From: Acaryochloris marina MBIC11017
Lineage (GTDB): Bacteria > Cyanobacteriota > Cyanobacteriia > Thermosynechococcales > Thermosynechococcaceae
DNA: 32,000 nucleotides
Direction: 5' to 3'
Assembly (NCBI RefSeq): GCF_000018105.1
Contig: NC_009925.1
Span: forward strand, 4,800,001-4,832,000
How positions within the stretch are numbered: position 1 is the stretch's first letter; every line of letters begins with the position of its first letter. Below are positions 7,259 through 25,895 of the stretch, piece after piece. The notes under the pieces were generated by a model. It did not search any database, was not told the DNA's origin, and saw nothing but the letters and a program-made list of their open reading frames with translations. The translations under genes were made by a program, and so were the position numbers.

Positions 7259-7799
7259 TATTGCAGCCAATACTGGGTTTCTGGTTTGCCGAAATCGGCT
7301 GTTCTGCCAAGGCAGCATCCAACGCTCCTCGCAAATCTTCCCCCGTCACCATCAGATTATTGCTGGGACGGCTATCGTCTAGCTGTCCTCGATAGACGAG
7401 TTTGCGGTGAGCATCAAAGACAAAAAAGTCGGGTGTACAGGCCGCAGTATATTGCTTGGCAACGTCTTGGTGTTCATCAAAACAGATGGGAAAGTTATAG
7501 CCGAGGCTGGTCGCCATGGCGGTTAAGTGCTCTGGATCGTCCAAGGGGTGGCTCTGGATATCGTTAGAGCTGATCGCCACAATTCCCAAACTTTGATCAG
7601 AATAATCGTGACCAATCTGAGCCAGTTCGGCTTGGACATGTTTCACAAACGGACAGTGCTGGCAAATAAACATCACTAGGAGAACGTTGCGATGGGCAAA
7701 TGTCTCTAAGGAAATGGTTTGCCCACTGACCACATCTGGCAGCTGAAAGTTGGGAGCGGGTGTCCCCAGATCCAACATTGTCGAAGCGGTTAACACCAT
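7218..7799 (-). CDS. thioredoxin-fold (AhpC/TSA-redoxin family) thiol-disulfide oxidoreductase
   Basis: 193 aa. CxxC motif (CQHCPFV) within the VLLVMFICQHCP context. Length and layout are typical of thioredoxin-family proteins. Confidence 0.8.
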   Translation of the reverse strand: MVLTASTMLDLGTPAPNFQLPDVVSGQTISLETFAHRNVLLVMFICQHCPFVKHVQAELAQIGHDYSDQSLGIVAISSNDIQSHPLDDPEHLTAMATSLGYNFPICFDEHQDVAKQYTAACTPDFFVFDAHRKLVYRGQLDDSRPSNNLMVTGEDLRGALDAALAEQPISANQKPSIGCNIKWKPGNEPAYYG

Positions 7800-8065
7800 A
7801 ATGTCTACCCTTGAGCAATTAGCACACTAAAACTTTATTCTGCCGTGACCCTACTCAGATTACCAAGCGGTCATTCTTAACCTGCCGCTCATCCATTCAA
7901 GACGGATGTCACAAAGCAATGGTGGTCTGTTCACCTTAAAGCTAACAGAATTGGTGAAAGAGATGAAGAAAACGCCTTAAATTAGAGATCTATGTCATCT
8001 TGTTGGCAGTGCCACAGCCCAAAATCCTGGGTTCAAATGTAAATCACAACAGAATGTGCTCACAC

Positions 8066-9736
8066 ATGAGAAATTGGCAAACGATTGAGAACACGGCCTT
8101 TGACCTCATCGTGATTGGGGGAGGCAGTAATGGAGCAGGGGTGGCCCGTGATGCGGCTCTGCGAGGCCTTAAAACTCTGCTGATCGATAAAGATGATTTC
8201 GGCAGCGGCACCACAGGCTGGTCGAGCCGGTTGATTCATGGCGGGCTGCGCTATCTGGAATACTTTGAATTCAACCTGGTCCGGGAATCCTTGCGAGAGC
8301 GGGAAGTGCTATTACGGGTGGCCCCCCATTTAGTCCGGCCTCTACAGATGTCGATTCCCGTCTATGCCAGCGGCTCGCGAGCTTTCTGGGAAATTCAGGC
8401 CGGAATGCTGCTCTATGATGTTCTCAGTTTTGATAAATCCCTACCCAATCACCGGATTTTGCCTCTGCAAAAGTGCTTGCAGCTATTTCGGCACCTGAAT
8501 CCAAAAGGGTTAAAAGGGGCAGCCCAATATTTTGATGCCCAAGTCGTTCATGCTGAGCGCCTCTGTTTGGAATTAGTGCTGTCGGCCCAAACTGCAGGGG
8601 CGACAACCCTGAACTATGCCCAAGTGTCTCAGCTTCAAGTCGAAGGAGATCGAGTCACAGGCATTACTCTTGACGACTTGATTGCAGAGACCACCCATAC
8701 AGTCCAACTATCCCCCCAAACCGTGGTGATTAATACGGCAGGTCCCTGGGTCGATCAGGTTTTACAAGGGATACAGTCTCCAACCCCGAAACAAGAGCGA
8801 AAAATCGGCGGTACTAAAGGCAGCCATATTATCGTCGATCCCTTTCCCGGAGCCCCCGACGCTGCCCTTTATGCGGAAGCCGAAGTCGATAACCGTCCCT
8901 TTTTCATTCTGCCCTGGGCCAATCAATATCTGATTGGGACTACAGATATTCGGTATAGCGGTGATTTAGATCGGGTTAAGGCCGATGACGCTGAAATTGA
9001 TTATTTGCTGAATGAAACCAATCGAGTGATTCCCTGTGCCCAACTGTCTCGGGCTGATATTCGCTTTACCTATGCCGGTGTCCGACCGCTCCCCTATAGC
9101 GAAGGGAAAAAGACCAGCAGTATTACCCGCAGCCATGTTCTCTACGATCACTGCAAAGACGGCATTACCAATTTAATTTCTTTAATTGGCGGTAAGCTTA
9201 CCACCTATCGGCAGGTGGCAGAAGAAATGGTGGATGCTGTGTTGAAGAAGCAAGGTCGCGGCCCAATTCCTTGTGTAACCAAGCAAGAGCTATTTCCAGG
9301 TGCGATCTCACTCAACGATACCTTGATCGAAACCATGATCAGCAAATACCAGTCCCTCGTTAGCCGAGAGACTGTCTTTCATCTGTTCTCTATCTATGGC
9401 AGTTTTGCTGTGAAGATTTTGGCTCTTATTGATGAAACCCCAGAACTAGCCGAGCCGATTACCCCATCCCTACTCGATATTAAGGCCCAAGTGGTCTATG
9501 CGGTCCAATCTGAACACGCCCACACCCTCGTCGATATATGCGTGCGGCGAACGATTTTGGCGATGCAAACCAATTATGGTTTTGATGTGCTGCCAGCAGT
9601 GACGGCAATTTTGAAGCAATACTGCAACTGGAGTGACGCAGATTGTGATCACCACATCCAACACTATCATCGGTTTATGGAAGCCAATAGTTTGCCTGAT
9701 TTTGTGACGGCTCAGACAACAGCGCCTATCCGTTGA
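8066..9736 (+). CDS. glpD: FAD-dependent glycerol-3-phosphate dehydrogenase/oxidase
   Basis: Dinucleotide-binding motif DLIVIGGGSNGAGVARDAALRG, plus LIHGGLRYLE and GGKLTTYR motifs. The start is uncertain: the ORF opens at 8000 (TTG), with ATGs at 8054 and 8066. Confidence 0.85.
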   Translation: MRNWQTIENTAFDLIVIGGGSNGAGVARDAALRGLKTLLIDKDDFGSGTTGWSSRLIHGGLRYLEYFEFNLVRESLREREVLLRVAPHLVRPLQMSIPVYASGSRAFWEIQAGMLLYDVLSFDKSLPNHRILPLQKCLQLFRHLNPKGLKGAAQYFDAQVVHAERLCLELVLSAQTAGATTLNYAQVSQLQVEGDRVTGITLDDLIAETTHTVQLSPQTVVINTAGPWVDQVLQGIQSPTPKQERKIGGTKGSHIIVDPFPGAPDAALYAEAEVDNRPFFILPWANQYLIGTTDIRYSGDLDRVKADDAEIDYLLNETNRVIPCAQLSRADIRFTYAGVRPLPYSEGKKTSSITRSHVLYDHCKDGITNLISLIGGKLTTYRQVAEEMVDAVLKKQGRGPIPCVTKQELFPGAISLNDTLIETMISKYQSLVSRETVFHLFSIYGSFAVKILALIDETPELAEPITPSLLDIKAQVVYAVQSEHAHTLVDICVRRTILAMQTNYGFDVLPAVTAILKQYCNWSDADCDHHIQHYHRFMEANSLPDFVTAQTTAPIR

Positions 9737-10963: not shown

Positions 10964-12121
10964 ATGCAAATCTACTTAGATTACAGTGCAACCACTCCTT
11001 GTCACCCAGACGTGATTATCGCCATGGGTAAAGTTTGGACAGAACAATGGGGCAATCCGTCTAGTTTGCATGAGTGGGGACAACGGTCTGCCACCGTTTT
11101 AGAGCAGGCACGCATGCAGATTGCAGACTTGATTCATGCTCCCGCTGAGTCGATTATTTTTACGTCGGGTGGGACTGAAGCCAATAACTTAGCGTTAATG
11201 GGGATTGCTCGAACCTTTACCCAACCCCAGCATTTAATCATCTCTAGTATTGAGCACTCTGCGATTACTGAACCAGCTCGCCTGTTAGAGCAACAGGGAT
11301 GGCAAGTCACTCGTTTGCCCGTAGATTCCCAAGGTCATATCTCACCAGATGCTCTGAATGACTCAATTCAAAACAACACTGTTTTAGTCTCAGTGATTTA
11401 TGGTCAGAGCGAGATTGGTACTCTACAATCGATCCACACTTTAGGGCAAATCGCGCGCGATCGAGGCGTGCTCTTTCATTCCGATGCGGTGCAGGTAGCG
11501 GGTCGTCTCCCCATTGATGTGCAAACCTTGCCCGTGGATTTACTCTCCCTCTCTAGCCATAAACTCTATGGTCCCCAAGGAGCAGGCGCTTTATATGTGC
11601 GTCCTGGGACTCACCTGATTCCCCTATTGGCAGGGGGCGGACAGGAACAAGGTATGCGTTCAGGGACACCCGCTGTACCCATTATTGCTGGGTTTGGTTT
11701 GGCGGCTGAGATGGCGGCGGAAGAGATGGAGGCAGAGGGGGTGCGACTGATGCAGCTGCGCGATCGCATGTTTGCTCAACTCAGCCACTCTCCCTACCTA
11801 CTGCCAACGGGAGATCTGAGCCAGCGATTACCCCATCACGTCAGCTTTTGCCTCCCTCCTACCACGGAGATAACAGGTAAGACCTTAGTCCGACAGATGA
11901 ATTTGGCAGGCATTGCCATTAGTGCCGGGTCGGCGTGCCATAGCGGTAAGCTATCCCCCAGCCCTATTTTGAAAGCCATGGGATACTCAGATCAACAAGC
12001 GTTATCCGGTATTCGCTTGACCCTAGGTAAGCAAACAACTCTCGAAGATATCGATTGGACCATTACAGCCTTAAATCAACTATTGCATCGACTAATGCCT
12101 CAATCGGCGGCAATTGTCTAA
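10964..12121 (+). CDS. cysteine desulfurase (NifS/IscS-like, PLP-dependent)
   Basis: 385 aa. PLP-lysine context SSHKLYGP, active-site Cys context SAGSACHSG, and N-terminal YLDYSATTP. Confidence 0.85.
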   Translation: MQIYLDYSATTPCHPDVIIAMGKVWTEQWGNPSSLHEWGQRSATVLEQARMQIADLIHAPAESIIFTSGGTEANNLALMGIARTFTQPQHLIISSIEHSAITEPARLLEQQGWQVTRLPVDSQGHISPDALNDSIQNNTVLVSVIYGQSEIGTLQSIHTLGQIARDRGVLFHSDAVQVAGRLPIDVQTLPVDLLSLSSHKLYGPQGAGALYVRPGTHLIPLLAGGGQEQGMRSGTPAVPIIAGFGLAAEMAAEEMEAEGVRLMQLRDRMFAQLSHSPYLLPTGDLSQRLPHHVSFCLPPTTEITGKTLVRQMNLAGIAISAGSACHSGKLSPSPILKAMGYSDQQALSGIRLTLGKQTTLEDIDWTITALNQLLHRLMPQSAAIV

Positions 12122-12419: not shown

Positions 12420-12926
12420 TTACCCTAGTAAAGCTCTGTGATGCTGGCGACGTTCAGCATCGGGATCGGGGATGGATGGAATAGCCTGAATGTCCTGAAT
12501 ATAGGCTGCTGGCAGGCTTAAATTCAAGGCGCCTTGGACAATGTAGGCTTTGTACCAATGAAACGGACGCAAAGTTTGGTCTATCAGCAGAGCCAAGTAG
12601 GTAAACGCTTCAAGGCACCCCTCAGTGGTCAAAATACTGAGACATTGGCGTTCATAGCCTACCCCCAAGCTTTCAGCTTGGTCCAAGTAGTGAAGCTCAG
12701 ATAAGTCCATCTGAAAAACGGCTCCCCAAACGATATCGTCTGGTTGACCAGTGGCTTGAATATTCGCTTTACCGGATTGATCTAAACCCACCTTATGGAA
12801 CTGAAATTGATACCCCTGGAGGTGGCCCAGGGTGATGAAGCGAGCGGACGGGACGCGCGCTAGTAAGCGGGACTGATACAAATTAGAGCCGTAGGCAAAG
12901 TAATAGTCCGGATGATTCGTGACCAT
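12420..12926 (-). CDS. gamma-glutamylcyclotransferase (AIG2/GGCT-like) family protein
   Basis: 168 aa. Hallmark N-terminal YFAYGSNL motif. Its start shares nt 12926 with the stop of the upstream GGDEF gene. Confidence 0.7.
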   Translation of the reverse strand: MVTNHPDYYFAYGSNLYQSRLLARVPSARFITLGHLQGYQFQFHKVGLDQSGKANIQATGQPDDIVWGAVFQMDLSELHYLDQAESLGVGYERQCLSILTTEGCLEAFTYLALLIDQTLRPFHWYKAYIVQGALNLSLPAAYIQDIQAIPSIPDPDAERRQHHRALLG

Positions 12927-14503
12927 TATTTTGGCGATTTCATGGTTCCCTGGGTTTGATCGGTTAGGGACCGGGGATGGTCTCGGCGATCGCGATAGGT
13001 TTGCTTGTCCTGGTACATAGATTGATCAGCACAATGCATCAGTTCTGATAGGGTACAGCCGTCCTGGGGATGGCTGGCAACACCAATACTAGCGGTTATT
13101 TTGAGGGTGATATTCTCAAGTTTTAGGGGCTGTCGCAACCGGAGTAAGAGCCGTTCCCGGGTGGCATGGGCTGCATTTTGATTCACCTTAAACAACAAGG
13201 CTACAAATTCATCCCCGCCAATACGGGCGACAATGTCCCCCTGACGCACGCAGGTTTTTAAGCACTTCGCCACATAAATGAGTACTGCATCTCCGATCTG
13301 ATGGCCATAGGTATCATTAATCGGCTTAAAGTCATTTAAATCTACGTATAACAAGGCCACTGGCCACAGTCCTTTGCCCGCGCTACTCAGGGACAATTGG
13401 CCTGAGATTTCCAATTGGCGACGATTACACAGCCCCGTCAGACTATCAAAGTAGGCAAAATGCTTGAGCTGCGCTTGTTTTTGGCGTTCAACGGTAACAT
13501 CGCGAATAATGACCAAAGATCCTACTAGACGATGACCTGGGCTGTGCAACGTCCGGATTTTGACTTCTTTAAGGAGGGTTTGGGAAAATTGAAATAGCTT
13601 GACCGTTTCAGTGATTTCTTGGGTCAGGGGCGTTGTCAGCAAATGCTGATAGGCGGGAAAGCTGACGTGAAACGGTTGCCCCAAAATATTGTCAAACAGG
13701 CTTTCGCGATAAGCACTGGGATTGAGATCGACAATATGATTTTGAGTATCCAGAAATATCACCGCATCTTCTGTGTTGAGAAATACGGTGCGGTAGGAAA
13801 TGGGGGAGACTTCAAATAGTTTGCCGCGAAACAGTCCCACTACCATGATCAAACCGCTGACCGCAAAGCTAATCGGGGTCAGGTCTAACCCGTAGAAATG
13901 AACCCTTGCTAACAGATACAACAGGCTAGAAAAGAAGGGAATGATCGACGCAGACAGCAATACCAAAATCTGTTGTCGATAGATTTGGGAGCTGGCGAAA
14001 TAAGCGTTGAGGAGTACGCCGACGCCCCCTAGCAGCAGCAAGTAGTTGTAGGGCATCATCACATAGCTAAACCACCAGCCATGATCAATCATCAATTGAG
14101 GCGCAGGGGTATGCCCCAATTCCACAGATGCCCAAATCAGACCATGCCAAGGATCTGTAAAGGCAAAGATCATGCTCAGTAGGGGCAACACCATCATCCC
14201 TCTCGTTCTCTGGGTGTTCAGACGAGAATCGTTATGGGTGTATTGCAGGGTAAAGACAAGCCAAAAGACGGCGAAAAACGGAATGCCGAGGTATTGCAGT
14301 TTGCCAAAAACGATGCGGGGAGTGGCTTCAGTGCTGAGATATTCTAAGACCGCGAAAAAGCACCAAATAAAGAGGCAAAGAATACACCTAAAAAAGGATT
14401 TTGCCCCTGTAACGGACCGCCGTTGCCATACATAGATAGCAATACTGCCTGTAGCAAAAGCTGCGATCGCAGGTAGAAGCGCTAGGAGGTAGTGAATCAG
14501 CAT
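12926..14503 (-). CDS. diguanylate cyclase with N-terminal 7TM sensor domain and PAS-like region
   Basis: 525 aa. About seven N-terminal TM helices, a central PAS-like segment, and a C-terminal GGDEF domain (RIGGDEFVALL, with LTGLCNRR upstream). Confidence 0.85.
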   Translation of the reverse strand: MLIHYLLALLPAIAAFATGSIAIYVWQRRSVTGAKSFFRCILCLFIWCFFAVLEYLSTEATPRIVFGKLQYLGIPFFAVFWLVFTLQYTHNDSRLNTQRTRGMMVLPLLSMIFAFTDPWHGLIWASVELGHTPAPQLMIDHGWWFSYVMMPYNYLLLLGGVGVLLNAYFASSQIYRQQILVLLSASIIPFFSSLLYLLARVHFYGLDLTPISFAVSGLIMVVGLFRGKLFEVSPISYRTVFLNTEDAVIFLDTQNHIVDLNPSAYRESLFDNILGQPFHVSFPAYQHLLTTPLTQEITETVKLFQFSQTLLKEVKIRTLHSPGHRLVGSLVIIRDVTVERQKQAQLKHFAYFDSLTGLCNRRQLEISGQLSLSSAGKGLWPVALLYVDLNDFKPINDTYGHQIGDAVLIYVAKCLKTCVRQGDIVARIGGDEFVALLFKVNQNAAHATRERLLLRLRQPLKLENITLKITASIGVASHPQDGCTLSELMHCADQSMYQDKQTYRDRRDHPRSLTDQTQGTMKSPK

Positions 14504-14710: not shown

Positions 14711-14781
14711 GCGGGTGTAGTTTAGTGGTAAAACCTTAGCCTTCCAAGCTAATGATGGGGGTTCGATTCCCCCCACCCGCT
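14711..14781 (+). tRNA. tRNA-Gly (anticodon UCC)
   Basis: Manual cloverleaf. Acceptor GCGGGTG/CACCCGC, D-arm GTTT-AGTGGTA-AAAC, anticodon arm TTAGC-CTTCCAA-GCTAA (anticodon TCC), variable loop TGAT, T-arm GGGGG-TTCGATT-CCCCC, discriminator T. CCA is not encoded. Confidence 0.9.
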
Positions 14782-14794
14782 TTGCTTTGTATTA

Positions 14795-15038
14795 TGTACA
14801 TTGCACAGCTATTTGTCCGTTTTGCACAGTTAGTGTCCAAAATCGACAAGAAAATATTGGCAGAATTTAGGGAACAGTAATTTTGAGCAACAGGCTGTAA
14901 TCCTTATCCCTAGCCATTAACTGACTAAATTAAACTAATCAAGAGTGGACTCTGATTAGTTTAATATGCAGTACAATTCACATCTTGAGTAAAGAAAAAA
15001 CTACTTATTTGCTCGTTTTGCACAGTTAGTGTCCAAAA
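14795..15038 (+). repeat. array-proximal transposon end: terminal TGTACA plus three TnsB-site-like repeats
   Basis: TGTACA (14795-14800) is followed by TTGCACAGCTATTTGTCC (14801-14818) and TTGCACAGTTAGTGTCC (14822-14838). The 25-mer CGTTTTGCACAGTTAGTGTCCAAAA occurs identically at 14818-14842 and 15014-15038. The layout parallels the TGTACA + GTGACA... ends of ShCAST, as recalled from memory. Confidence 0.7.
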
Positions 15039-15058
15039 GCACCCACACAAAGCCCTCA

Positions 15059-15130
15059 GCATATCAAGAGCTGTTGTTGGAAGGCTAAGGTTTCTTTCAT
15101 CGCTCTAGACTCTCGCAATTATTCTAGGGC
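15059..15130 (-). ncRNA. delocalized short homing crRNA (diverged repeat + tRNA-Gly-matching guide)
   Basis: On the minus strand, a repeat-like segment ends GATGAAAG (rc of 15094-15130; array repeats end GTTGAAAG). It is followed directly by AAACCTTAGCCTTCCAA (rc of 15077-15093), which is identical to tRNA-Gly positions 14731-14747. Confidence 0.65.
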
Positions 15131-15173
15131 TATTCTGAGTGGGAAACACTAGAACAGGGAAGTATGCCTAAGC

Positions 15174-15426
15174 CTTTCAACTCCCAACACCCTCAAAAGG
15201 ACGTTGCGACGGAACTCAACGTCATGCTCTGCAATCATTTCAGTTCTTTCAACCCCCAACACCCTCAAAAGGACGTTGCGACACTTTACCTGGAAGCGGC
15301 TTGAGGTCAGTCGCGAACTTTCAACCCCCAACACCCTCAAAAGAACGTTGCGACCTCAATTGGAAATTAGAGGAGCAAACGCAATGCATCTTTCAACCCC
15401 CAACACCCTCAAAAGGACGTTGCGAC
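15174..15426 (-). CRISPR. CRISPR array, 4 repeats of 37 nt and 3 spacers of 35 nt (type V-K-like repeat)
   Basis: Repeats lie at 15174-15210, 15246-15282, 15318-15354 and 15390-15426, with + strand sequence CTTTCAACCCCCAACACCCTCAAAAGGACGTTGCGAC. The minus-strand form is GTCGCAACGTCCTTTTGAGGGTGTTGGGGGTTGAAAG. Repeats 1 and 3 each carry one mismatch. Spacers lie at 15211-15245, 15283-15317 and 15355-15389. Orientation is inferred from the GTTGAAAG 3' handle and the mutated repeat distal to cas12k. Confidence 0.9.
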
Positions 15427-15599
15427 AGTACCCAGCTAGAACCAAGTCACCAAATAGGTTTCAAGGAGTGAAATCGCAAACCTCTTGAATGAGATGGAAA
15501 TTAATGAATATACAGATCCTGGAGGCTAGCTCCAAAAGCCTGTAACTCATACTCGTCAATACTCCTAGGAATTGCGCGGACCTCTTGAATGGTTAGTGA

Positions 15600-15880
15600 C
15601 CTACAAAAGCGCAGAGAGTCTAGGGCTCCCCCCGATTAGGTATTAACAACACCCTCCCATAGACAAGGAAGGCATGGTTAATTTCCTCCTGAGGGGCATT
15701 TTAGAGCTGCCACGATACGTATGCCTGTATCTTTGAAATAGGTAATGAAACCAATCTCAAAAACATTGCTTTCTGCAACAGGTGCGACCATGCTGCCCAG
15801 TTCTTGAAAAGAACTCAAAAGCAGACAACTACAGGGACTGGAAAGTAGTTAAACTGGCCCATAATTTTCACGGTATTCGG
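15600..15880 (-). ncRNA. putative Cas12k tracrRNA region
   Basis: Noncoding gap between the cas12k remnant and the array. The minus strand contains ACUUUCCAGUCCCUGUAGUUGUCUGC, which resembles the CUUUCUGACCCUGGUAGCUGCU segment of the ShCAST tracrRNA as I recall it; CUUUC can pair with the GAAAG end of the repeat. It also contains AAUCGGGGGGAGCCCUAG near the 3' side. Boundaries are approximate. Confidence 0.4.
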
Positions 15881-15957
15881 CTTTACAGCCTACTATCCAT
15901 GCGCTGTCGTTAATTTTACTCTCCTAATCAGGAGTAAAATAACCACTTCGCAAATCT

Positions 15958-16833
15958 TCAGGAACTAGGGGCCTCATACTGAAGATGAGCATAAGCAATT
16001 TCTACAGATTGTTCAAAGGGACCAGCATTTTTATAGAATTTCAAGATGTTCACCTTCATCTCTCGCCTCTCAGCACAGTCTGCGATGCATTGAATTAAAC
16101 GGGTATAGCTCCAACGTGGATATCTCAGGCGAATGGCTTTTGCATACCGTTTCTGGAGCTGTTTATTGTTGGGGAACTTGAGCTGAGCCAGAGACTGAAC
16201 TCTGGCTTCAATGTGATCTTGAATGCCATGGGGAGATGGAAGGACGATGTCTCCAACTTGATGAGTTTGAGCCCATTGAATCAAATGATACGCAATAAGC
16301 TGGTCGCATTTTTTTCCAAGATTTTCTAGTCTCTTTGAACGGCGTAGCCTTCCTTTGGAGAATTCTTTCTTTTTAATCTTGCGCCAATAAACTCTTTGGC
16401 GATGTACACGGCCTATCAAATAGGCGAATTGACTTCTCTTAAAAGGTTTTAGCTTATCTTGATAGCCCTCCAATTTGAGTAGTTGAGGAGCCGTGATGGT
16501 TGCAACCAGCTTGCGGGTCTGATTATTTACGATTGAAGCTTGAAGTGGGAGCCCACAATAAAGGCTAACACCCATAGTTAATTCAGGGTTTCCAATGCAA
16601 GGAGAAACATGGGGCCTTCTGAGAGAAGCGTTCTGAAGACGATTAATGGATGATTGAGTCCGCTTTAGGTATGTTTTTTGCGTTTCCTTGAGTGTATTGA
16701 GCGATTTTCCCTCAAAAGATCGCAACTTCCCATTCTCCTCTTCGATTTTTTCAGCGCGGACCTCTGCAGTTCCTTCGTCAGAGAGCAGTCGTTCATCAAT
16801 GGTGCCGTGAAAATACAGTCGATGAGTTACCCA
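15958..16833 (-). pseudogene. cas12k: cas12k remnant (C-terminal ~290 codons only, no in-frame start)
   Basis: The translation VTHRLYFHGTIDERLLSDEGTAEVRAEK...GDIVLPSPHGIQDHIEARVQSLAQLKFP...RYAKAIRLRYPRWSYTRLIQCIADCAE aligns by eye with the C-terminal RuvC-like region of ShCas12k. The matching ShCas12k segments are HHLTLYCCVDNRLWTEEG..., GSIVLPKLGDMRE...QKYAKQYRVNVHRWSYGRLIQSIQ. The reading frame is open upstream of the tracked TTG at 16725 but has no ATG, GTG or TTG start. It abuts hsdR-derived sequence. Confidence 0.75.
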
Positions 16834-17368
16834 GGGTTTCTTTGGGGTCGCGGTCCTGGCAGTATTGCTTTTTAGCGTGGTAGACGGTCTGGCCAGACCA
16901 GGGGTTCTTTAGCTCCATGGTGGCCAGGGCGATACCGTTGACGAACAGCACCATATCGAGGGACAGGCCCGGATCGCTTTCGGAGTAGTGGACTTGGCGA
17001 GTGACAGAAAAGATATTGCGCTCGAAATTTTCGCGGATGGCAGGGTTGGCGTCGTTGTAGGGGAGACTGTAGAGCAGGGTAAAGTCGGCATCGTTGATGG
17101 AAATGCCTTTTTTGAGCACGGCCAGGACACCGTCTTTTTTTGCCTTGCGGTGAAAGCGTTCGAGGATGAGGCGTTGCCAGTTGGGCTGGTCCTGGACTTT
17201 GGCGAGTTCGTTGGGCTGGGTAGTCTCTAGAAAGCGCCAGAATTTTTCTGTATCGATGGCAAATTCGCGGTCAAAGTCAGCCGGTGATCCTTTTTCGTAG
17301 CCTGCCCCCTGTACTAGTGCGTTTTCGATGCAGTTTTCTAGGGCTTTCTCATTGGTTTGGCTGACCAT
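16796..17368 (-). pseudogene. hsdR: type I restriction enzyme R subunit, N-terminal fragment (~175 of ~1000 codons)
   Basis: N-terminal HsdR nuclease-domain pattern (MVSQTNEKALENCIENAL..., LDMVLFVNGIALATMELKNPWSGQTVYHAKKQYCQDRDPKETL). Unrelated residues and a stop then follow. The helicase domains are absent. Confidence 0.8.
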
Positions 17369-17378
17369 GAATTGTTTC

Positions 17379-17714
17379 TCACTCTTCTAGGGCTTCGGTT
17401 ACGGCAGTTTGAATCTCGTTGATTCTGACATCAGCTTGGTCTGATTTAGCGTAGACCAGCAATAGGAGCACGTCTTCAGGTGATATCACTTGGTAAATGA
17501 TTCGATATCCGCCACTTTTGCCGGTGGGAATATCGCTGTTCTTGGCACGAACTTTGAAGACAGTAGCTGTGGTTCCGGGAATTTGGTCACCGATGAAGTT
17601 ACCTTGCTCTAACTGTTGAATAACGGGCTGGAGGTCGGATTGAATTTGGCGGTAGCGCTTTTTGAGGCTTTTGAGACGACGCTTAAATCTAGGGGTAAAG
17701 CGAACGGAGATCAT
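17379..17714 (-). CDS. RelE/ParE-superfamily (HigB/Gp49-like) type II toxin
   Basis: 111 aa. Motifs FKVRAKNSDIPTGKSGGYRIIYQV and LLLVYAKSDQ are typical of this toxin family. It has a 4-bp ATGA overlap with the upstream small gene. Confidence 0.7.
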   Translation of the reverse strand: MISVRFTPRFKRRLKSLKKRYRQIQSDLQPVIQQLEQGNFIGDQIPGTTATVFKVRAKNSDIPTGKSGGYRIIYQVISPEDVLLLLVYAKSDQADVRINEIQTAVTEALEE

Positions 17715-17971
17715 GGTTCGTCTGCTAGATCATCCCAGAGCTGAGAAGCTGGGAAGGTTTGCCTAGCCGCGGCTTCTTGAAGAGAGATTTTAAGATCGGC
17801 TAGGAGCTGGGCGTTGGATTCGTGCTCATCGACCCAGGCTAAACCGCTAGCAGGATCTTTCAGGGTGCTGATCACTTGCTGCCACAGGGCGAGGGGAACT
17901 AGAACATCGGTGGGTTCTCCAGCAGCATTGGTCACGTATCGGACTTGGCCCTCAAGGGATGAATTCACCAC
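17711..17971 (-). CDS. putative cognate antitoxin
   Basis: 86-aa acidic protein immediately upstream of the toxin and translationally coupled to it. The call rests on position and size only. Confidence 0.5.
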   Translation of the reverse strand: MVNSSLEGQVRYVTNAAGEPTDVLVPLALWQQVISTLKDPASGLAWVDEHESNAQLLADLKISLQEAAARQTFPASQLWDDLADEP

Positions 17972-18075
17972 GGTTAGGGATCTCCTGCTTGTGTCTCTCT
18001 ATTTTAGTCGGGGCTATCCCTACGTTTTTATATTTTCTGTTCTTACACTGAGTTAGCTATCGGTTGGGCCTTGAG

Positions 18076-18627
18076 CTATGGGTGCATGAGGTAAGATATC
18101 TGAATTGTTATATCTTGAAAGGCCATGGGTGATACGGTGCCAGTTTTCAGGATGTTTTCGGTATCATAGTGCCCATTCTGCAGACTTTTGAAGATATGGA
18201 GCTGTTTATCCTTTAAATTGACGACCCAATATTCCTGTATTCCGGATGCAGCATAGGTATTTTTCTTAGTGGTCAGGTCTTGGGTGAGGGTGGCGTCGGA
18301 AAATTCGATGAGCCAGTGGATGTCGCTGGGGTAGGGATGATGGTCTAGATAGACGGTGCCCAGGGGTTTAACGATGGCTAGGTCGGGGATGGGTTCTGAG
18401 TCGTCGCTGAGGATGATGGGGTGGGCTTCGCGGACTTTGGCTCGGCTGCCCAGCAGGTTACGCAGGTAGTCACCGACTTCGCTGTTGTAGTAGGCGTGGG
18501 GTTCACCCTCTGGGGGCATGATGATGATTTCTCCGCGTAGTAGTTCGACGGGCTGGTCGTCGAATACGCCAGCTTGGATGGCCTGGTGGTAGCGGTCTAT
18601 GGTCCATTTGTAGGTGGTGACGGTCAT
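18076..18627 (-). CDS. Uma2 family (DUF820) PD-(D/E)xK endonuclease
   Basis: 183 aa. Motifs ELLRGEIIIMPP, PDLAIV, LIEFSDATLTQDLTTKKNTYAASGIQEYWVVNL match the Uma2 pattern. Confidence 0.8.
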   Translation of the reverse strand: MTVTTYKWTIDRYHQAIQAGVFDDQPVELLRGEIIIMPPEGEPHAYYNSEVGDYLRNLLGSRAKVREAHPIILSDDSEPIPDLAIVKPLGTVYLDHHPYPSDIHWLIEFSDATLTQDLTTKKNTYAASGIQEYWVVNLKDKQLHIFKSLQNGHYDTENILKTGTVSPMAFQDITIQISYLMHP

Positions 18628-18693
18628 AGGGACCTAGCCTCAGACTGGGGAAAGGGCTGATGTATCAGTAGTTTTAGTATGGCAAATTTAAGT

Positions 18694-19976
18694 TCAGACT
18701 TTTATCTTGCCGGTTACAGCATGTGATATCAAAATTTCTCTAAATTCTTGAAGCTTATTGATTTGTTCTTCTGCTCTTACTTGAGCAGTTTCAAAACCAA
18801 GTAACCGATTATCTAGGAAATCTACAATTTGATTCTGCTCTTCTACAGGGGGACAAGCAGTATATAGAGCTCCAATGCGATCGACGTTTAAGTTTTCCTG
18901 AGTACTAACAATTGAGACTTCGTCTAGCCGAGTTTTCAGCACTCCAAACATGTAATAGAGAAAGTCTGCAGAAACTTCACCTGGATTTGGGAAAAAACCA
19001 ACGGCACTATCAGGAAAGCAAGCATTAAAACCTAAAATTGAAACCTCTCCAGTCTTTGCTCCGGTAATAACCATTACAACTGTGCCAGCAGGAAATTCTT
19101 TGCTAACTGCATATCCTCTGGCATTGAGAGTCTGTGAATATTTTGTGATTCTTCTCCCAGCTTGGGATATGTCACCAGTTTGAATGAATGGGTATTGTCC
19201 ACCATAGAACCTTGCATCGTTACGAGGTCTATGAGAAAACTTCCCTCTCAAGATTTGCGTAAGTCTTTTGACACTACACAATTTCCAATGATTAGGAACT
19301 TTTTCTAGTCCATGTATGCCGCGATCGCACATCGGCACATTGGGGTCTAGCCCTTTGGTGACGGCTTGATTGATGAGGATGGCTTTTTGTTCTTGTAGGA
19401 GTTCGATGAGGCGCTGTTTGGTTGCTATGGCATCATCAAGCTCAACAGTTTTCCGATCAAGAAACTCAACAATCCGGCGTTGCTCATCAATCGGAGGAAT
19501 CGTTAAAGGTAAATATTTAAAGTCTGTGTAGTCTAAGTTTTGGCGTAACCCAGACCCCATACCGTAATAGACCTTCAGCAAATCATATGCATGTAAGTAA
19601 ATCTTGGATCTATCTGCTTCGAAGGGGAAAGACATAAATAAGCAGATGTGATAATTCCATGGTCTTGAACTAATCCAATTCGAAGACTCGTTCGATCATT
19701 CTGTAAATCTGTTGCCCGAACAATAATGTCCCCTGGCTCAACAATCTGATAAGTCTCAAAGGATTCAGGTACTAAGCCATGTAGTTTTTCTTTGGGCTTA
19801 ATTACAATTTTTCCATAACTCAGGGATAAAACGGTTTTAACGTGATTACCGATATTTTTTACATTTTTGGGCCTCAGATAATTTCTTCCAAGCTCTACTC
19901 GCCAATGGTTTGGAACCTCATTAAGCCAGGAAACTTGACTATCTTGATAAGTTTCATGTTTTGGGAAAGTCAACAT
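18694..19976 (-). pseudogene. hsdS: type I R-M specificity subunit, disrupted by a frameshift near 19600-19630
   Basis: Two overlapping ORFs (19575..19976 and 18694..19635) together give an HsdS layout: TRD1, the central conserved helix PPIDEQRRIVEFLD, TRD2, and the C-terminal helix PPVEEQNQIVDFLD. The reading frame switches within TRD1. Confidence 0.7.
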
Positions 19977-20071
19977 CCTTTATACCTCCCCAAAACTCAC
20001 CAACCGCTTCAACAAGCCTTCCATCTTCTGCTCCAGCACCAAAATTTCCTCAACCACCGTTTCCCAAATCC

Positions 20072-20410
20072 TCAGCCCACCGCATAGCCAGACGCTTTCC
20101 GCATAAACGGTGAGTGCAGCCCCAACACAATATTCTGTTTAGGAATGCCCTGCTCCACCAGCCGTTCAGCCAAATTAATCTCCGTATTATTGCGCTGAAT
20201 CCAGACCTTATTGTCCTTAATATCAATGTGGACAATGGTGCCGTACACAAACTGCTTTTGCTCCCAGCCCACATCGATCAAAAGATAGTGATTATGCTCC
20301 GCATCAAACACTAGCTGAGACTCCACATCGCTATGGCTAGAGTGATCATAGCCGTGTAACTCCCTGAGCAAATCCTCAACTAAGCATCGATAGTCCTTTA
20401 ACTCAGCCAT
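20072..20410 (-). CDS. xisI: XisI family protein
   Basis: 112 aa. The pattern DAEHNHYLLIDVGWEQKQFVYGTIVHIDIKDNKVWIQRNNTE is typical of XisI. It overlaps the xisH stop by 13 bp. Confidence 0.8.
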   Translation of the reverse strand: MAELKDYRCLVEDLLRELHGYDHSSHSDVESQLVFDAEHNHYLLIDVGWEQKQFVYGTIVHIDIKDNKVWIQRNNTEINLAERLVEQGIPKQNIVLGLHSPFMRKASGYAVG

Positions 20411-20811
20411 TCTAAAATCACCTCCGTTTCAGGCTCATAAACAATCAGCCTAATTTGATATTTTTGAACCACCGACTTTGCCAACAAAGACTGAAAAAAC
20501 GTACTGTAAATCTCTTCAGGAACAGCTAGATATAGCAGACGATTAGGCTCTTTATTTTCCAATGCTACCTGGTAGTTAATAAATTGACCGATAGCCAAAT
20601 GAAAATCGAAAACCACCGAATCACTGGCAAAGGTTTTCACCTCGACGGCAATTTTTTCCTCACCTCGCTCTGCGGCCAAAATACGCTCCGCACCCAAATC
20701 AATATAGATCCGAGTATCGCCAAACTTTAGGCTTAGCGGATCGTCCGTCACCGTCCAGCCTGCACTTTCCAGACCACGCTTCACCGCATCATGAAAGATA
20801 TCTTTAGCCAT
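20398..20811 (-). CDS. xisH: XisH family protein
   Basis: The N-terminus MAKDIFHDAVKRGLESAGWTVTDDPL and the segment IAVEVKTF are typical of XisH. The start was chosen at the ATG at 20811, which overlaps the hsdM stop; the ORF is open to 20826. Confidence 0.8.
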   Translation of the reverse strand: MAKDIFHDAVKRGLESAGWTVTDDPLSLKFGDTRIYIDLGAERILAAERGEEKIAVEVKTFASDSVVFDFHLAIGQFINYQVALENKEPNRLLYLAVPEEIYSTFFQSLLAKSVVQKYQIRLIVYEPETEVILEWLS

Positions 20812-23227
20812 CGGTAGTCGCCCCAAAACTGACTAACCGCTTCAATAAGCCTTCCGTCTTCTTCTCCAGCTCTAAAATTTCCTCAACGACCGTCTCCAGC
20901 TTCCTCAACGGTTTGTGCTGATAAAAATACTTATTGAAATTAATCTCATAGCCAATCTTCGTACTATCCAACGCGATCCAAGCATCCTCAACATGGGGCC
21001 GCACCTCCGCCAAAAAATACCCATGGATCTGCGCCGTACCCCGCTCCAGTGCCTGCCCATAGTTCAACGGCACACTTTCCGTATCCCGCAGCTCACTATC
21101 CGTCTCATACTCAATCCACTGCCCCGCCGTTTCCCCAGGCCAGTACCCAAAGTCCGCCAGGTGCTCCTCCGTGGTGCCCAAATGCTCCAATAACTCCGCT
21201 AGCTTCTCACCCTTCAGCTTATGCACCTTTTTAATCACCCTGGCCGCCGCCTCATCCCGCCAACTCACCGCATTAAAAATTTGCCTCTTCTCACTAGCCG
21301 ACAGCTTGCTGTCCAACTGTCTGGCCAAAGTTTTGAGCGTATCATTCACCCGCTCAGCAAAATCATTAAAATCATGCCAAACCTCCTGCTCCACCGAGGC
21401 CATGAGCTGCTCCGCTACCTGCATCAAATCCCGCTGATTTTCCCAGGTCTTCGCTGTAAACAACGCCTTGCGATTCTTCGCCGTCAGGCTAATTTCTTCC
21501 TTTTCCAGGTATTCCTCAATTTTTTGCTTATGGTCCGTTAGGCTCGTGTAAATCTCATCACCCCACTCACCATAGGCCCACTCCATTACCTCCGCCAGGA
21601 CAGGCACATAGCGCAGCGTCGCCACCCGCTCCGGCGTAAACTGAGCTAACAGCCGCAGGGGCCGTTCCACAGTTACCTTGTAAAAGCCAAAATCCTGATT
21701 ATCAAACACCTTAGAGATGGGCGGCGGTGGCAGCTCCCTATCTTCACTAGGCGGCAACGTCGGCTGATGCACCCGATCTAAATACAGGTGAGTAATCTTC
21801 TCAATCTGCTCCGGTGCAAACTCACAGTTCTTCGCCCCCAGATTCTTCCGCAGCTTGCGATACAGCTCCGACCTATCAATCAGCTGCACCTTTCCCTGCC
21901 GTTCCGGTGCCTTATTATTCGACAGCACCCACACATAGGTGGAAATGCCGGTGTTGTAAAACATATTCTGAGGCAACTGGACGATCGCCTCCAGCCAGTC
22001 ATTTTCAATGATGTAGCGGCGAATATTGCTCTCCCCGCTACCCGCATCCCCTGTAAACAGCGAAGACCCATTGTGAACTGACGCAATTCTGGAACCTGCC
22101 GGACTCTGGTCCAGAGGCTTCATTTTGCTAACCATATCCATTAGAAACAGCAACTGCCCATCCGAAGAGCGGGGCGTTGCCTTCTCTAAACTTTCCTCAT
22201 CCCAAAAATCCTTCAGTGGTAACAAAAACCGCTCATCCAGGACATCCTTGCCATCTAGGATATGTTTTTGATCCGCTGCGTAGGACTTGCCATAGGGTGG
22301 ATTTTCCAGCATGAAATCAAACCGCATTCCGGCAAACTCATCCATCGCCAGCGTCGATCCCAGTTTGATGTTCTCAGGACTATTCCCCTTAATCATCATG
22401 TCCGACTTGCAAATGCCATAGGTCTCCGGGTTGACCTCCTTGCCATAGAGGTAGACCTGAGCATCTGATTTGATTCCCCCCTCCGGGTCGCTGATAAAGT
22501 TTTGGGACTCTGTCAACATCCCCCCTGAACCGCAGGCCCCGTCATAGATCAACATCACGGGCGGAAGCTGCTCCTTCACTGGCATAAACAGCAAGTGTGT
22601 CATCAGCTTGATCACCTCGCGGGGGGTGAAGTGCTCTCCAGCCTCCTCGTTATTTTCTTCGTTAAACTTACGGATCAGCTCCTCAAACACATAGCCCATC
22701 CCCAGATTGCTCAAACCCGCCAGCTTGCGTCCATCCGGATCTTCACCTTGAGTTGGGCTGAAATTGATATAGGGACTCGTAAACTTTTCCAAGACATCTA
22801 ACAGTACATCCGCCTGCACCATCCGTTTGATTTGGTCCCGCAGATAAAAACTGTCAATGATCTCTTTGACGTTCTCGCTAAATCCATCCAGATAGGCTTT
22901 AAAGTTGGCCTCTAAAATTTGGCGGTTATTGGACGCCGTTTCAACTAATCTTTTCAGCGTCCAATCTGAAGTGTTGTAGAACACATAGCCCGAGGCATCC
23001 TTTAACGCACCAGACTCTAGCTCGGTCAGCCCCACGGATTCCCGCTGAAACCGAACCTCTTCCATGACTGCATCCTTGGTCTCCTCCAGCAGACAATCTA
23101 ACCGCCGCAGCACAAACATCGGCAAGATGACATCGCGGTATTTTCCGCGAACGTAGACATCACGCAAGCAGTCATCTGCAATCGACCAAATGAATGAAAT
23201 CAGCTTGTTTTGTGATGCTGCATCCAT
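20804..23227 (-). CDS. hsdM: type I restriction-modification system methyltransferase subunit (long form, 807 aa)
   Basis: HsdM N-terminal domain (LISFIWSIADDCLRDVY), AdoMet motif YDGACGSGGML and catalytic NPPYG motif. The frame is intact throughout. Confidence 0.9.
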   Translation of the reverse strand: MDAASQNKLISFIWSIADDCLRDVYVRGKYRDVILPMFVLRRLDCLLEETKDAVMEEVRFQRESVGLTELESGALKDASGYVFYNTSDWTLKRLVETASNNRQILEANFKAYLDGFSENVKEIIDSFYLRDQIKRMVQADVLLDVLEKFTSPYINFSPTQGEDPDGRKLAGLSNLGMGYVFEELIRKFNEENNEEAGEHFTPREVIKLMTHLLFMPVKEQLPPVMLIYDGACGSGGMLTESQNFISDPEGGIKSDAQVYLYGKEVNPETYGICKSDMMIKGNSPENIKLGSTLAMDEFAGMRFDFMLENPPYGKSYAADQKHILDGKDVLDERFLLPLKDFWDEESLEKATPRSSDGQLLFLMDMVSKMKPLDQSPAGSRIASVHNGSSLFTGDAGSGESNIRRYIIENDWLEAIVQLPQNMFYNTGISTYVWVLSNNKAPERQGKVQLIDRSELYRKLRKNLGAKNCEFAPEQIEKITHLYLDRVHQPTLPPSEDRELPPPPISKVFDNQDFGFYKVTVERPLRLLAQFTPERVATLRYVPVLAEVMEWAYGEWGDEIYTSLTDHKQKIEEYLEKEEISLTAKNRKALFTAKTWENQRDLMQVAEQLMASVEQEVWHDFNDFAERVNDTLKTLARQLDSKLSASEKRQIFNAVSWRDEAAARVIKKVHKLKGEKLAELLEHLGTTEEHLADFGYWPGETAGQWIEYETDSELRDTESVPLNYGQALERGTAQIHGYFLAEVRPHVEDAWIALDSTKIGYEINFNKYFYQHKPLRKLETVVEEILELEKKTEGLLKRLVSFGATTDG

Positions 23228-23727: not shown

Positions 23728-23908
23728 CGACACTTAGCTACGCAAAGATCGATATTACGTAGCACAGAAATAACACTTAACGATGCAAATCCGCTCTGGA
23801 TATGGAATATGAGCCGAATGCCTAAGAGCTTTATCAAATGATAGAGACAAGCATGATTGCCTTGCGACAGTAATTTCTAACCTGCTTCATTTATCCGTGC
23901 AATGTACA
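23728..23908 (-). repeat. array-distal transposon end: terminal TGTACA plus TnsB-site-like repeats
   Basis: Read on the minus strand: TGTACA-TTGCACGGATAAATGAAG (23885-23908), TTGCATCGTTAAGTGTTA (23771-23788) and TTGCGTAGCTAAGTGTCG (23728-23745). This is the same motif family as the sites at 14801-15034, in inverted orientation. Confidence 0.6.
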
Positions 23909-24244
23909 AATTTTCCAGAATTAATGTCACAAAACTAGAAATGTGACTGGTCGCTAGGGAATGTATACGATATCGTTTTGTGCGAGGATAAAACACAGAA
24001 CTCTTCACCTTTTGGGCTTTCTAGGTATCTCAGGACCAGCCAGTCACGATGCTATATTAGTAATCTTTATGATTCTAGGTGGATAAAATAGAATTTTCTG
24101 GTTCGTTTCCCAGAAGTAGTGTTATGTAACGCCTCGCATCACTTGCTGACAAAGCGCGTAGCAGTTTGGCGGTCCGTGTGCGTGCGCTTGTTAGGCTGGG
24201 GGCAACCACTACTGCTCCTTTTTTCAACCAGTATTCCGACCGTG

Positions 24245-24619
24245 TTAGGTTTCGATCTCATGGCAGACCACTTCAATATTGTGTCCGTCGGGGTCAAGAA
24301 CATAGGCCGCATAGTACCGCCCACTGTACTGAGGACGTTGTCCAGGCGGTCCGTTGTCTTGCCCGCCTGCATTGAGGGCGGCTCGATAGAACGCGTCGGC
24401 CTGATGCCGACTCTCAGCTACAAATGCAATGTGTAGATGCGCGGGTGTCTCTTCCGTTTGGTACAGGCATAGGGAACTCATGCCGGTTGGTTGACTAAGC
24501 TCAGCACCATTTGGCGGCCAATCCGTAACTACAGTCACCCCAATTGGTTCGAGTGCCTTAAGGTAGAAGTTCCTGCTCAGCGCAAAGTCGCGAACGCCGA
24601 ACTTTATATGGTCAAACAC
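24245..24619 (-). CDS. VOC (glyoxalase/bleomycin-resistance/dioxygenase) family protein
   Basis: Contains FDHIKFGVRDFALSRNFY near the N-terminus and AAYVLDPDGHNIEVV at the C-terminus. A GTG start at 24619 sits 4 nt after GGGGGA and gives the usual ~124 aa. The ORF is open to the ATG at 24697. Confidence 0.7.
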   Translation of the reverse strand: MFDHIKFGVRDFALSRNFYLKALEPIGVTVVTDWPPNGAELSQPTGMSSLCLYQTEETPAHLHIAFVAESRHQADAFYRAALNAGGQDNGPPGQRPQYSGRYYAAYVLDPDGHNIEVVCHEIET

Positions 24620-25261: not shown

Positions 25262-25813
25262 ATGAAAATTAGCCAGAAATATTACTTGATTGTCGATCTT
25301 GAAGCCACCTGTGCAGATGATAATTCCATTCCTCGCCGCAGAATGGAGATGATTGAGATTGGAGCTGTGCTTCTCAACTCACAAACTCTGCAGATAGAAA
25401 GTGAATACCAGACCTTCATAAAGCCCATTCTTCATCCTGTGCTGACTGAGTTTTGCAAATCTCTGACATCCATCTCTCAGCAGGATATTGAAAAGGCCCC
25501 ACTTTTCCCGGCGGCTCTAAAAGATTTTCAATCTTGGTTTTACCCCTGTGGGAGTTATCTGTTTTGCTCTTGGGGAGATTATGATCGGCATCAATTTGTG
25601 CAGGATTGCCAGATGCATGGCGTTGGCTATCCCTTTCCGGGGGATCATCTCAATTTAAAGCGAGCATTCTCTAGCGAGATCAACTCAAAAAAGAAGTTTG
25701 GTATGGCAGGCGCATTGACCGAATTAGGTCTAGAGCTTGAAGGGGTTCATCATCGGGGTATAGATGACGCTCGAAATATTGCCCGCATTGTTCAAACTGC
25801 TTTTTCTGAGTGA
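25262..25813 (+). CDS. DEDDh 3'-5' exonuclease (ERI-1/KapD-like)
   Basis: 183 aa. Exo motifs VDLEAT, WGDYD and HHRGIDDARN. Confidence 0.8.
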   Translation: MKISQKYYLIVDLEATCADDNSIPRRRMEMIEIGAVLLNSQTLQIESEYQTFIKPILHPVLTEFCKSLTSISQQDIEKAPLFPAALKDFQSWFYPCGSYLFCSWGDYDRHQFVQDCQMHGVGYPFPGDHLNLKRAFSSEINSKKKFGMAGALTELGLELEGVHHRGIDDARNIARIVQTAFSE

Positions 25814-25895
25814 GTCTCTAGAAAGTTCACAACAGGTGTTTCGCAATGAGTCCCCCTATTCAGAACAATATTGACCGAGCCGTGAGTCTAAGAAC

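Follow-up and report, generated by a model that had tools for sequence, protein, structure and literature searches.

A putative attachment-site guide RNA of a decayed type V-K CRISPR-associated transposon beside tRNA-Gly in Acaryochloris marina MBIC11017

A stretch of 32,000 nucleotides from Acaryochloris marina MBIC11017 (contig NC_009925.1, positions 4,800,001 to 4,832,000; hereafter the window, with positions counted from its first letter) contains a tRNA-Gly(UCC) gene and, close to it, a small CRISPR array. Judged from the sequence, the segment 15077-15114 on the minus strand is very probably the attachment-site CRISPR RNA (crRNA) of a type V-K (Cas12k) CRISPR-associated transposon (CAST), and beside it would lie the junction left by its homing. 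The observations comprise the relationships among the sequences, a regularity across the Cas12k family, and conservation in an intact sister element (locus L064). The original prediction had described the site as a delocalized homing crRNA of type V-K; every element of that model which a sequence can test was found, and the identical guide is present in the intact sister. The features are as follows:

14711-14781, plus strand: intact tRNA-Gly(UCC), the attachment-site gene, pointing toward the element (ARAGORN; Rfam RF00005, 76.1 bits)
14728-14730, plus strand: protospacer adjacent motif (PAM) GTA (GTN), within the D-loop GGTA at 14727-14730 (sequence)
14731-14747, plus strand: 17-bp protospacer, tRNA D-stem to anticodon loop (17/17 to 15077-15093, minus strand)
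14795-15038, plus strand: transposon left end, TGTACA terminus and three TnsB-site-like repeats (repeat family D2; homology to L064)
14795-14819, 14820-14842 and 15016-15038, plus strand: the TnsB-site-like repeats L1, L2 and L3 (direct repeats)
15077-15093, minus strand: 17-nt attachment-site (homing, 'anchor') spacer (identical guide in L064 at 5297-5313)
15094-15114, minus strand: truncated repeat R*, ...GAGAGTCTAGAGCGATGAAAG, directly 5' of the guide (15/21 identical to the 3' end of the array repeat)
15174-15426, minus strand: CRISPR array, four 37-nt repeats and three 35-nt spacers with a 72-nt period (repeat family D1)
15427-15596, minus strand: array leader or inter-region with two copies of CCTCTTGAATG (family D3, plus strand; L064 homology down to 15498)
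15597-15915, minus strand: probable trans-activating CRISPR RNA (tracrRNA), divergent, with a ~50-nt insertion (covariance model and relatives)
15958-16842, minus strand: 3' third of cas12k, a truncated pseudogene of ~295 codons (PDB match and tblastn)

A unit of this kind was named the 'truncated repeat-spacer unit' by Hsieh & Peters (2021, bioRxiv 10.1101/2021.02.06.429022), who described ~13 bp of repeat joined to a 17-bp spacer, together with a GTN PAM, and noted that tnsBCQ is often lost through decay. Ziemann et al. (2023, PMC9938897) described R* followed by a 17-nt 'anchor spacer', with 46-82 nt between the PAM and the left end across 118 cyanobacterial CASTs. PMC11656645 credits the homing-crRNA unit ('delocalized crRNA') to Saito et al. 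(2021, Cell). The window agrees with such a homing unit in position and strand, in the partial repeat, in the ~17-nt spacer directed to a tRNA, in the GTN PAM, and in the distance from the PAM to the left end.

The sole tRNA found by ARAGORN in the window is tRNA-Gly(TCC) at 14711-14781 on the plus strand. The 17-mer AAACCTTAGCCTTCCAA occurs at 14731-14747 (plus strand) in this gene and again at 15077-15093 (minus strand), so that the predicted identity with the D-stem through the anticodon loop is exact (17/17). No further copy is present in the window even at two or fewer mismatches, and 0 are expected from 100 shuffles; the repeat search returned the pair as inverted repeat I1 (17 nt, 100%). 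The match is exactly 17 nt long, the next base being C in the element versus G in the tRNA. The GGTA at 14727-14730 had been proposed as a GTN PAM, and GTA was confirmed at 14728-14730. The distance from the PAM to the TGTACA end, which starts at 14795, was recomputed over positions 14731-14794 and is again 64 bp; the target of the guide, in tRNA-Gly(UCC), is separated by 48 bp from the left end downstream of it. Read along the minus strand, the parts follow one another as cas12k (16842-15958), tracrRNA (15915-15597), array (15426-15174), R* (15114-15094), guide (15093-15077), and left end (15038-14795). A metagenome scan for GAAAG followed by the 17-mer gave 0 matches.

The truncated repeat that abuts the guide on the minus strand ends in GATGAAAG, where 15094-15098 represent the conserved GAAAG. 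The array repeats on the same strand read GTCGCAACGTCC...GTTGAAAG, and the ending GTTGAAAG resembles V-K repeats. Comparison of R* (...GAGAGTCTAGAGCGATGAAAG) with the array repeat (...GAGGGTGTTGGGGGTTGAAAG) gave 15/21 identical positions; this likeness is confined to the 3' ~21 nt of a diverged 37-nt frame, and the 5' part is unrelated. The diverged repeat had been placed ~40 bp beyond the last array repeat; it was found there, but the gap to its 37-nt frame is 43 nt. The R* segment GAGAGUCUAGAGC (15114-15102) pairs at 12/13 positions with the tracrRNA anti-repeat GCCCUAGACUCUC (15626-15614), and by our own estimate the 531-nt region would contain a match to a 13-mer with no more than one mismatch by chance with a probability of about 3e-4. 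The suggested alignment of 15094-15130 with V-K repeats thus returned a related truncated repeat, which pairs with the anti-repeat of the element's own tracrRNA.

A family set of 32 cyanobacterial loci, taken from a pattern search with the Cas12k C-terminus, was used for comparison; it includes ShCAST of Scytonema hofmanni UTEX 2349 (L003). A tRNA on the opposite strand is located 0.6-2.8 kb downstream of cas12k in 23/32 loci. An exact 14-18-nt copy of the tRNA was found inside the element in 15 of these 23 tRNA-linked loci, and each copy is preceded by ...TTGAAAG. All 15 protospacers are preceded by GGTA or GGTT, most of them by the D-loop GGTA as in the window, and the distance from the PAM to TGTACA is 54-70 bp. 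The ShCAST insertion was reported 60-66 bp from the PAM (PMC9798831), to which the offset in the window had been likened; the native ShCAST locus measures 17 nt, GGTT, and 64 bp. As a side observation, the helix between R* and anti-repeat 2 is as long as or longer than that of the array repeat in 8/11 loci (e.g. 13 vs 8-9 pairs), and this long helix may be a means of giving the homing guide priority.

Six related assemblies (L033-L038) were reached via homologues of the flanking GGDEF gene, one of which (L037) is a short contig that ends before the tRNA. The 17-mer occurs once in each of the five relatives that reach the tRNA. The tRNA beside the GGDEF gene was identified by ARAGORN in L033-L035 and in L064, and the 17-mer is found at the same offset in L036 and L038. 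A second 17-mer in relatives lacking the element had been named as evidence against homing; four of the five loci have none within ~10 kb, and the sequence of L035 ends ~6.8 kb beyond the GGDEF gene. Synteny with the window ends at 14783-14785 in three of the five relatives, in agreement with the predicted left boundary of the element. Measured from the same PAM, the left-end relics of L033, L034, and L036 start at 65, 67, and 65 bp, respectively, and the distance is 62-67 bp across the Acaryochloris tRNA-Gly loci when the relics and the intact L064 are considered together. Homing at this site therefore appears to have recurred, and the relics at 65-67 bp from one PAM suggest that elements have inserted and decayed there one after another. 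The relics of L033 and L034 are located just after tRNA-Gly, and one relative has a duplicated 29-nt tip.

An exhaustive HMMER search revealed full-length Cas12k proteins with 60% and 45% identity to the fragment in the window, and NCBI also annotates Cas12k in other A. marina strains. The L064 element (GCA_028285315.1, JANQPU010000139.1; 2545-5970) is a compact, apparently intact V-K CAST with a cas12k of 674 aa. It is located at the orthologous tRNA-Gly(UCC) site, in the same GGDEF/GGACT/aminotransferase/gpsA/glpD neighbourhood. Its guide unit reads ...GGGAGTCTAGAGCGCTGAAAG|AAACCTTAGCCTTCCAA, with a guide identical to that of the window and a GGTA PAM; the left end, nearly identical to that of the window, begins 62 bp from the PAM. 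The segment comprising R*, the guide, and 9 nt beyond (15066-15112) is 91.5% identical to L064 over 47 nt and is the best-conserved segment of the element; the other L064-aligned element segments show ~71-79% identity, and the stretch that spans the outer left end, the tRNA, and the adjoining host flank shows 77.6%. The window and L064 may share one ancestral insertion or represent separate insertions. The second sister, L057 (941-8010), contains tnsB, tnsC, tniQ, two small open reading frames (ORFs), an RHH regulator, and a 663-aa cas12k in ~6.5 kb; L057 and L058 are from Logan SRR29950796/7. The intact relatives of the clade keep a full cas12k (663-674 aa), the RHH regulator, tniQ/tnsC(/tnsB), and a compact layout, in which they differ from the window. 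The left-end sites, the tracrRNA, and the cas12k 3' end of L064 are homologous to those of the window (71-91% DNA identity), with insertion at 62 vs 64 bp.

Two further loci, L060 and L062 (the latter from A. marina chromosome CP064923.1), are directed to the homologous position in tRNA-Gly(CCC). The guide used there, GAACGTCAGCTTCCCAA, departs from that of the window at 5/17 positions, and each guide matches its own target; GGTA precedes the protospacer in L060, L062, and L064. The guide of L060 and L062 follows the last full array repeat, whereas that of the window follows a separate truncated repeat. The L062 locus (12785-13022) carries an intact-looking CAST whose guide matches just a ~33-nt tRNA-Gly(CCC) fragment, from the D-arm to the anticodon arm. 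The attachment site there is this fragment: ARAGORN finds no tRNA, yet the distance from the PAM to the left end is 65 bp.

The putative tracrRNA was examined at two levels of relatedness. A covariance model of the 5' 123 nt of the family tracrRNAs had its best match in the window at 15808-15911 (minus strand; 14.4 bits, E 0.054), just after the cas12k stop as expected for a tracrRNA; a sequence-only nhmmer profile of 17 family tracrRNAs gave no significant match in the window. Among the closer relatives, L057 and L064 align with the window without a break, starting within cas12k and continuing across the tracrRNA, at 70-71% identity, and the tracr region is 70-90% identical to that of these intact elements. 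Anti-repeat 2 (GCCCUAGACUCUC) at 15614-15626 (minus strand) is followed by a terminator-like stem and a U-run, with the terminator-like site at 15631-15613. For this 3' anti-repeat, the L057 counterpart (GGGGGAGCCCTAGACTCTC) shows 90% identity, and that of L064 (GAGCACTAGACTCTC) has a single difference. An alignment of four sequences of the clade contains 63 consensus pairs, 15 of them with compensatory changes. On these alignments, the closer relatives appear to settle the presence of a tracrRNA between cas12k and the array. The usual V-K anti-repeat is AACCCnCCC, from which GCCCUAGACUCUC of the Acaryochloris clade differs (PMC12416283).

The remaining parts of the element and its surroundings are as follows:

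16796-17368, minus strand: hsdR N-terminal fragment fused to the cas12k remnant (Pfam HSDR_N; tblastn; frame analysis)
17379-23227, minus strand: cargo with a ParE/RelE toxin and putative antitoxin, Uma2 nuclease, split hsdS, XisI/XisH, and hsdM (Pfam; PADLOC)
23892-23908, minus strand: candidate right-end tip TGTACATTGCACGGATA, degenerate (inverted repeat I13 with 14795-14811, 17 nt, 88%)
23909-24134, plus strand: older left-end-like relic of a related element, TTCCAGAATTAnTGTCAC-type sites ~193 bp apart (homology to L036 at 9447-9666 and 7646-7877)

The ORF at 15958-16725 (minus strand) is AM1_4776, a 255-aa protein annotated as 'hypothetical protein', which aligns to residues 408-627 of ShCas12k in PDB (E 1.6e-20). 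In tblastn with the ORFs of the 32 Cas12k loci, Cas12k homology extends over 16842-15988 (residues ~368-633). The remnant is 59% identical to residues 371-663 of the L057 Cas12k and stays open for ~295 codons with no internal stop. At the DNA level, the similarity to L057 and L064 begins precisely at 16842. On the other side, tblastn homology to an 879-aa HsdR covers residues 3-180 at 17365-16832. The two homologies meet at ~16832-16842, where hsdR codon ~180 is joined to cas12k codon ~368, and a deletion therefore fused the 5' part of hsdR to the 3' part of cas12k. No Pfam match to tnsB, tnsC, or tniQ was found among the scanned window ORFs of at least 80 aa (most of the long ones), and tblastn with the L057 TnsB, TnsC, RHH regulator, and two small ORFs returned nothing in the window. 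A tblastn match of the L057 TniQ at 24104-24394 (E 0.002) is outside the element and antisense to a good glyoxalase gene, and was rejected as spurious. By its gene content, the window element is apparently a dead, non-autonomous remnant, in which the RNA module, the left end, and a decaying cargo survive.

The left end has the terminal site TGTACATTGCACAGCTATTTGTCCG and the adjoining site TTTTGCACAGTTAGTGTCCAAAA, which recurs exactly at 15016-15038; the exact 21-mer TTGCACAGTTAGTGTCCAAAA is present twice. This two-plus-one layout of TnsB sites is the same as in the native ShCAST left end, and L1 is 24/25 identical to L064. The core TTGCACAGTTAGTGTCC of the TnsB site was also sought in metagenomes; 16 single matches had no wider homology except two marginal alignments of 36-45 nt around the matched site, and they were dismissed as chance. 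The candidate right-end tip has 1 mismatch in 14 to the left tip, and L036 homology begins at 23899/23911. No TnsB-site-like sequences above threshold were found near 23908. The complete homing footprint that had been proposed is thus present on the left-end side, with the tRNA intact, but the right end is degenerate and the 5-bp flanks are TATTA vs AATTT (3/5 identical). The relic at 23909-24134, which is different from the first left end, abuts the candidate right end, and its orthologue is another left-end-like unit of L036 (9447-9717 and 7646-7877). Several elements have therefore accumulated here, and the relic would indicate tandem accretion at the same attachment site.

Transcription of the guide unit, Cas12k loading, and the transposition step are inferred from the family. 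The crRNA would consist of the truncated repeat, keeping the tracrRNA-pairing part and the terminal GAAAG, followed by the 17-nt spacer. Together with the tracrRNA (~15597-15915, minus strand) it would load Cas12k, which would recognise the GTA PAM and the 17-bp protospacer inside tRNA-Gly(UCC). TniQ, TnsC, and TnsB would next join the element to the target with its left end leading, at ~60-66 bp beyond the PAM; since this is just past the tRNA 3' end, the tRNA would stay intact. The 64-bp junction would be the product of such an insertion, in the lineage of the window or in an ancestor. The later decay is visible from the sequence comparison: one deletion fused the hsdR fragment to cas12k codon ~368, tnsB, tnsC, tniQ, and the regulator were lost, and the right end degenerated.

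Several observations weigh against homing by this guide. R* is less array-like (15/21) than the truncated repeats of other loci, and its helix with the tracrRNA is offset by 3 nt from GAAAG, compared with 0-1 nt in the family (helix in the canonical anti-repeat). The tracrRNA was only weakly detected against the distant family (E 0.054 with the covariance model; nhmmer not significant), and therefore its assignment leans mainly on the closer relatives. The flanks of the window and L064 differ (13 vs 11 nt from the tRNA to the end), and L033, which has the most similar flank (85%), is without the element. The local cas12k is truncated and tnsB, tnsC, and tniQ are absent, so that the guide cannot now work in cis with machinery encoded in the window. 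Moreover, no 5-bp target duplication has survived, and the right end is just a 17-nt tip without recognisable TnsB sites; with the flanks unmatched, no firm right boundary is claimed.

Other explanations of the same sequences were also considered. A DNA-binding protein of the TniQ/TnsD type might have directed the element to the tRNA, as in the type I-B2 and I-D CASTs, the 17-nt match being a by-product. Protein-directed targeting of tRNA genes is known in cyanobacterial Tn7-like elements (PMC11406308; Hsieh & Peters 2021), and the window retains no targeting protein. However, the intact sisters encode one small TniQ of 170-172 aa, and the genes called on the recovered stretches include no further TniQ/TnsD; the guide, PAM, and spacing fit the Cas12k rules, the guides co-vary with the targeted tRNA isoacceptor (5/17 positions), and R* with the guide is better conserved than any other segment of the element, which together make this explanation very improbable. 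It is barely conceivable that the second 17-mer is a tRNA fragment duplicated by recombination (an integrase att duplication or a tRNA pseudogene fragment) and that its adjacency to GAAAG is coincidental. In its favour, tRNA genes are frequent targets of integrative elements, which duplicate a portion of the tRNA, and the target of L062 is itself a tRNA fragment. Against it, the copy in the window is inverted and derives from the tRNA 5' half, whereas the att duplications made by integrases repeat the 3' end in direct orientation. The copy is also exactly 17 nt long, abuts GAAAG on the cas12k strand, and occupies the guide position of 15 other Cas12k loci; the identical unit is present in the intact CAST L064, and no integrase adjoins the tRNA.

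A different question is whether the RNA module and the left end were retained for a continuing role in trans, alongside an intact CAST of the cognate type. An incoming CAST might borrow the host-matched guide, or the left end and the guide might govern occupancy of the site by immunity or competition; acting in trans has a slim chance of being right, and these variants an equally slim one. The RNA module is intact where the protein genes are deleted, the cas12k remnant lacks a stop over ~295 codons, R* pairs unusually well with the tracrRNA, and R* with the guide is 91.5% identical to the intact L064. Intact cognate CASTs do exist in Acaryochloris, and CASTs can use crRNAs from other arrays (PMC11300857). 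However, no intact CAST is present in the window and no Cas12k match was found on any Acaryochloris plasmid searched; recent deletions, without time for point-mutational decay, explain the pattern equally, and loss of tnsBCQ by decay is common in the V-K family (Hsieh & Peters 2021).

Homing by the crRNA at 15077-15114 is best compared with ShCAST. Both elements have a partial repeat ending in GAAAG with a 17-nt spacer, encoded on the cas12k strand with the array on one side and the left end on the other; a protospacer in a tRNA that points at the element, with a GTN PAM and 64 bp from the PAM to the left end; a TGTACA tip with two adjoining TnsB sites and a third further in; and a tracrRNA and leader upstream of the array. 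The target of ShCAST is the 3' part of tRNA-Leu, whereas that of the window is tRNA-Gly(UCC) with the PAM in the D-loop. The window Cas12k is ~30% identical to that of ShCAST, and its anti-repeat 2 is GCCCUAGACUCUC rather than AACCCnCCC (PMC12416283). The R* helix of the window is offset by 3 nt from GAAAG, and its element is a deletion remnant with a truncated cas12k and no tnsBCQ. The type I-F3 CASTs also have homing guides with atypical repeats (Petassi, Hsieh & Peters 2020, via PMC11406308); a self-targeting guide is kept apart from the array guides and directs the element to a conserved chromosomal attachment site. These differ in a Cascade/TniQ effector, a full-length spacer, and another PAM. 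Insertion there is ~48-50 bp from the protospacer and right-end-proximal, and the sites are protein genes or ffs, not a tRNA D-loop.

The homing mechanism is already known (Saito 2021; Hsieh & Peters 2021; Ziemann 2023), and what is new is a divergent case from the Acaryochloris clade. Among the papers searched, none mentions both Acaryochloris and Cas12k, and the supplements of Ziemann 2023 do not include Acaryochloris. Mechanistically, little is added for the CAST field. For annotation, the small CRISPR array without cas genes and the 'hypothetical protein' AM1_4776 beside the tRNA in MBIC11017 can be read as the wreck of a Cas12k transposon. The clade combines a variant tracrRNA anti-repeat with attachment sites in tRNA-Gly of the UCC and CCC isoacceptors, the guides co-varying with the target. 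The intact element, the decayed element, and the bare left-end relics form a natural series at one site, suggestive of repeated RNA-guided homing and decay. The compact intact relatives L064 and L057 are possible candidates as tools. If the module did act in trans, the relic would be a guide-bearing non-autonomous partner rather than junk.

Some candidate elements around the array and R* were tried and rejected. A -35/-10-like site at 15145-15118 (minus strand), considered as an own promoter of the guide, is at chance level (3 vs 2.1 expected), and its position is not kept in L064. A self-hairpin of R* with an upstream anti-repeat-like copy (family D4) folds no better than shuffles (z = 0.53). 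In the leader, one copy of CCTCTTGAATG ends in GGTCCGCG, a motif also present between the tracrRNA and the array in ShCAST. The motif GGTCCGCGCAA / GATCCGCGCAA is common to the window (15575-15591 and 15475-15491) and ShCAST (L003, ~10995-11015 and ~11085-11105), and probably corresponds to the conserved array-leader element to which Hsieh & Peters refer.

The array spacers had no match to phage. For spacer 2 (15283-15317), 30/35 positions agree with a hypothetical gene of a plasmid from A. marina S15 (NZ_CP064924.1; L056, 1501-1534), with no GTN PAM and 3 mismatches in the first 17 nt; it is unconvincing as a target, and could be a diverged former one. A ~75-bp fragment on plasmid pREC1 of A. 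marina MBIC10699 (NZ_AP026076.1; L055, 12001-12130) is homologous to 15136-15210 of the window. It covers the pseudo-spacer and the terminal repeat, which are followed by a spacer-length stretch and a partial repeat, and is what a related array has left behind on a conjugative plasmid.

In the cargo, hsdS is split in two overlapping ORFs (133 + 313 aa), and the XisH/XisI pair is located between hsdM and hsdS (18694-19976 and 20072-20826). With hsdR truncated, the type I restriction system of the cargo is also decayed. Further along the window, a reverse transcriptase at 26885-28315 (plus strand) matches the PADLOC retron RT_XIII model (E 8e-200). Beside it (25262-26405 and 28299-29720) are a DEDDh exonuclease, a 169-aa ORF of unknown kind, and, in convergent orientation, a WGR/beta-propeller protein. 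Together these genes, which lie outside the element, may form a defence locus.

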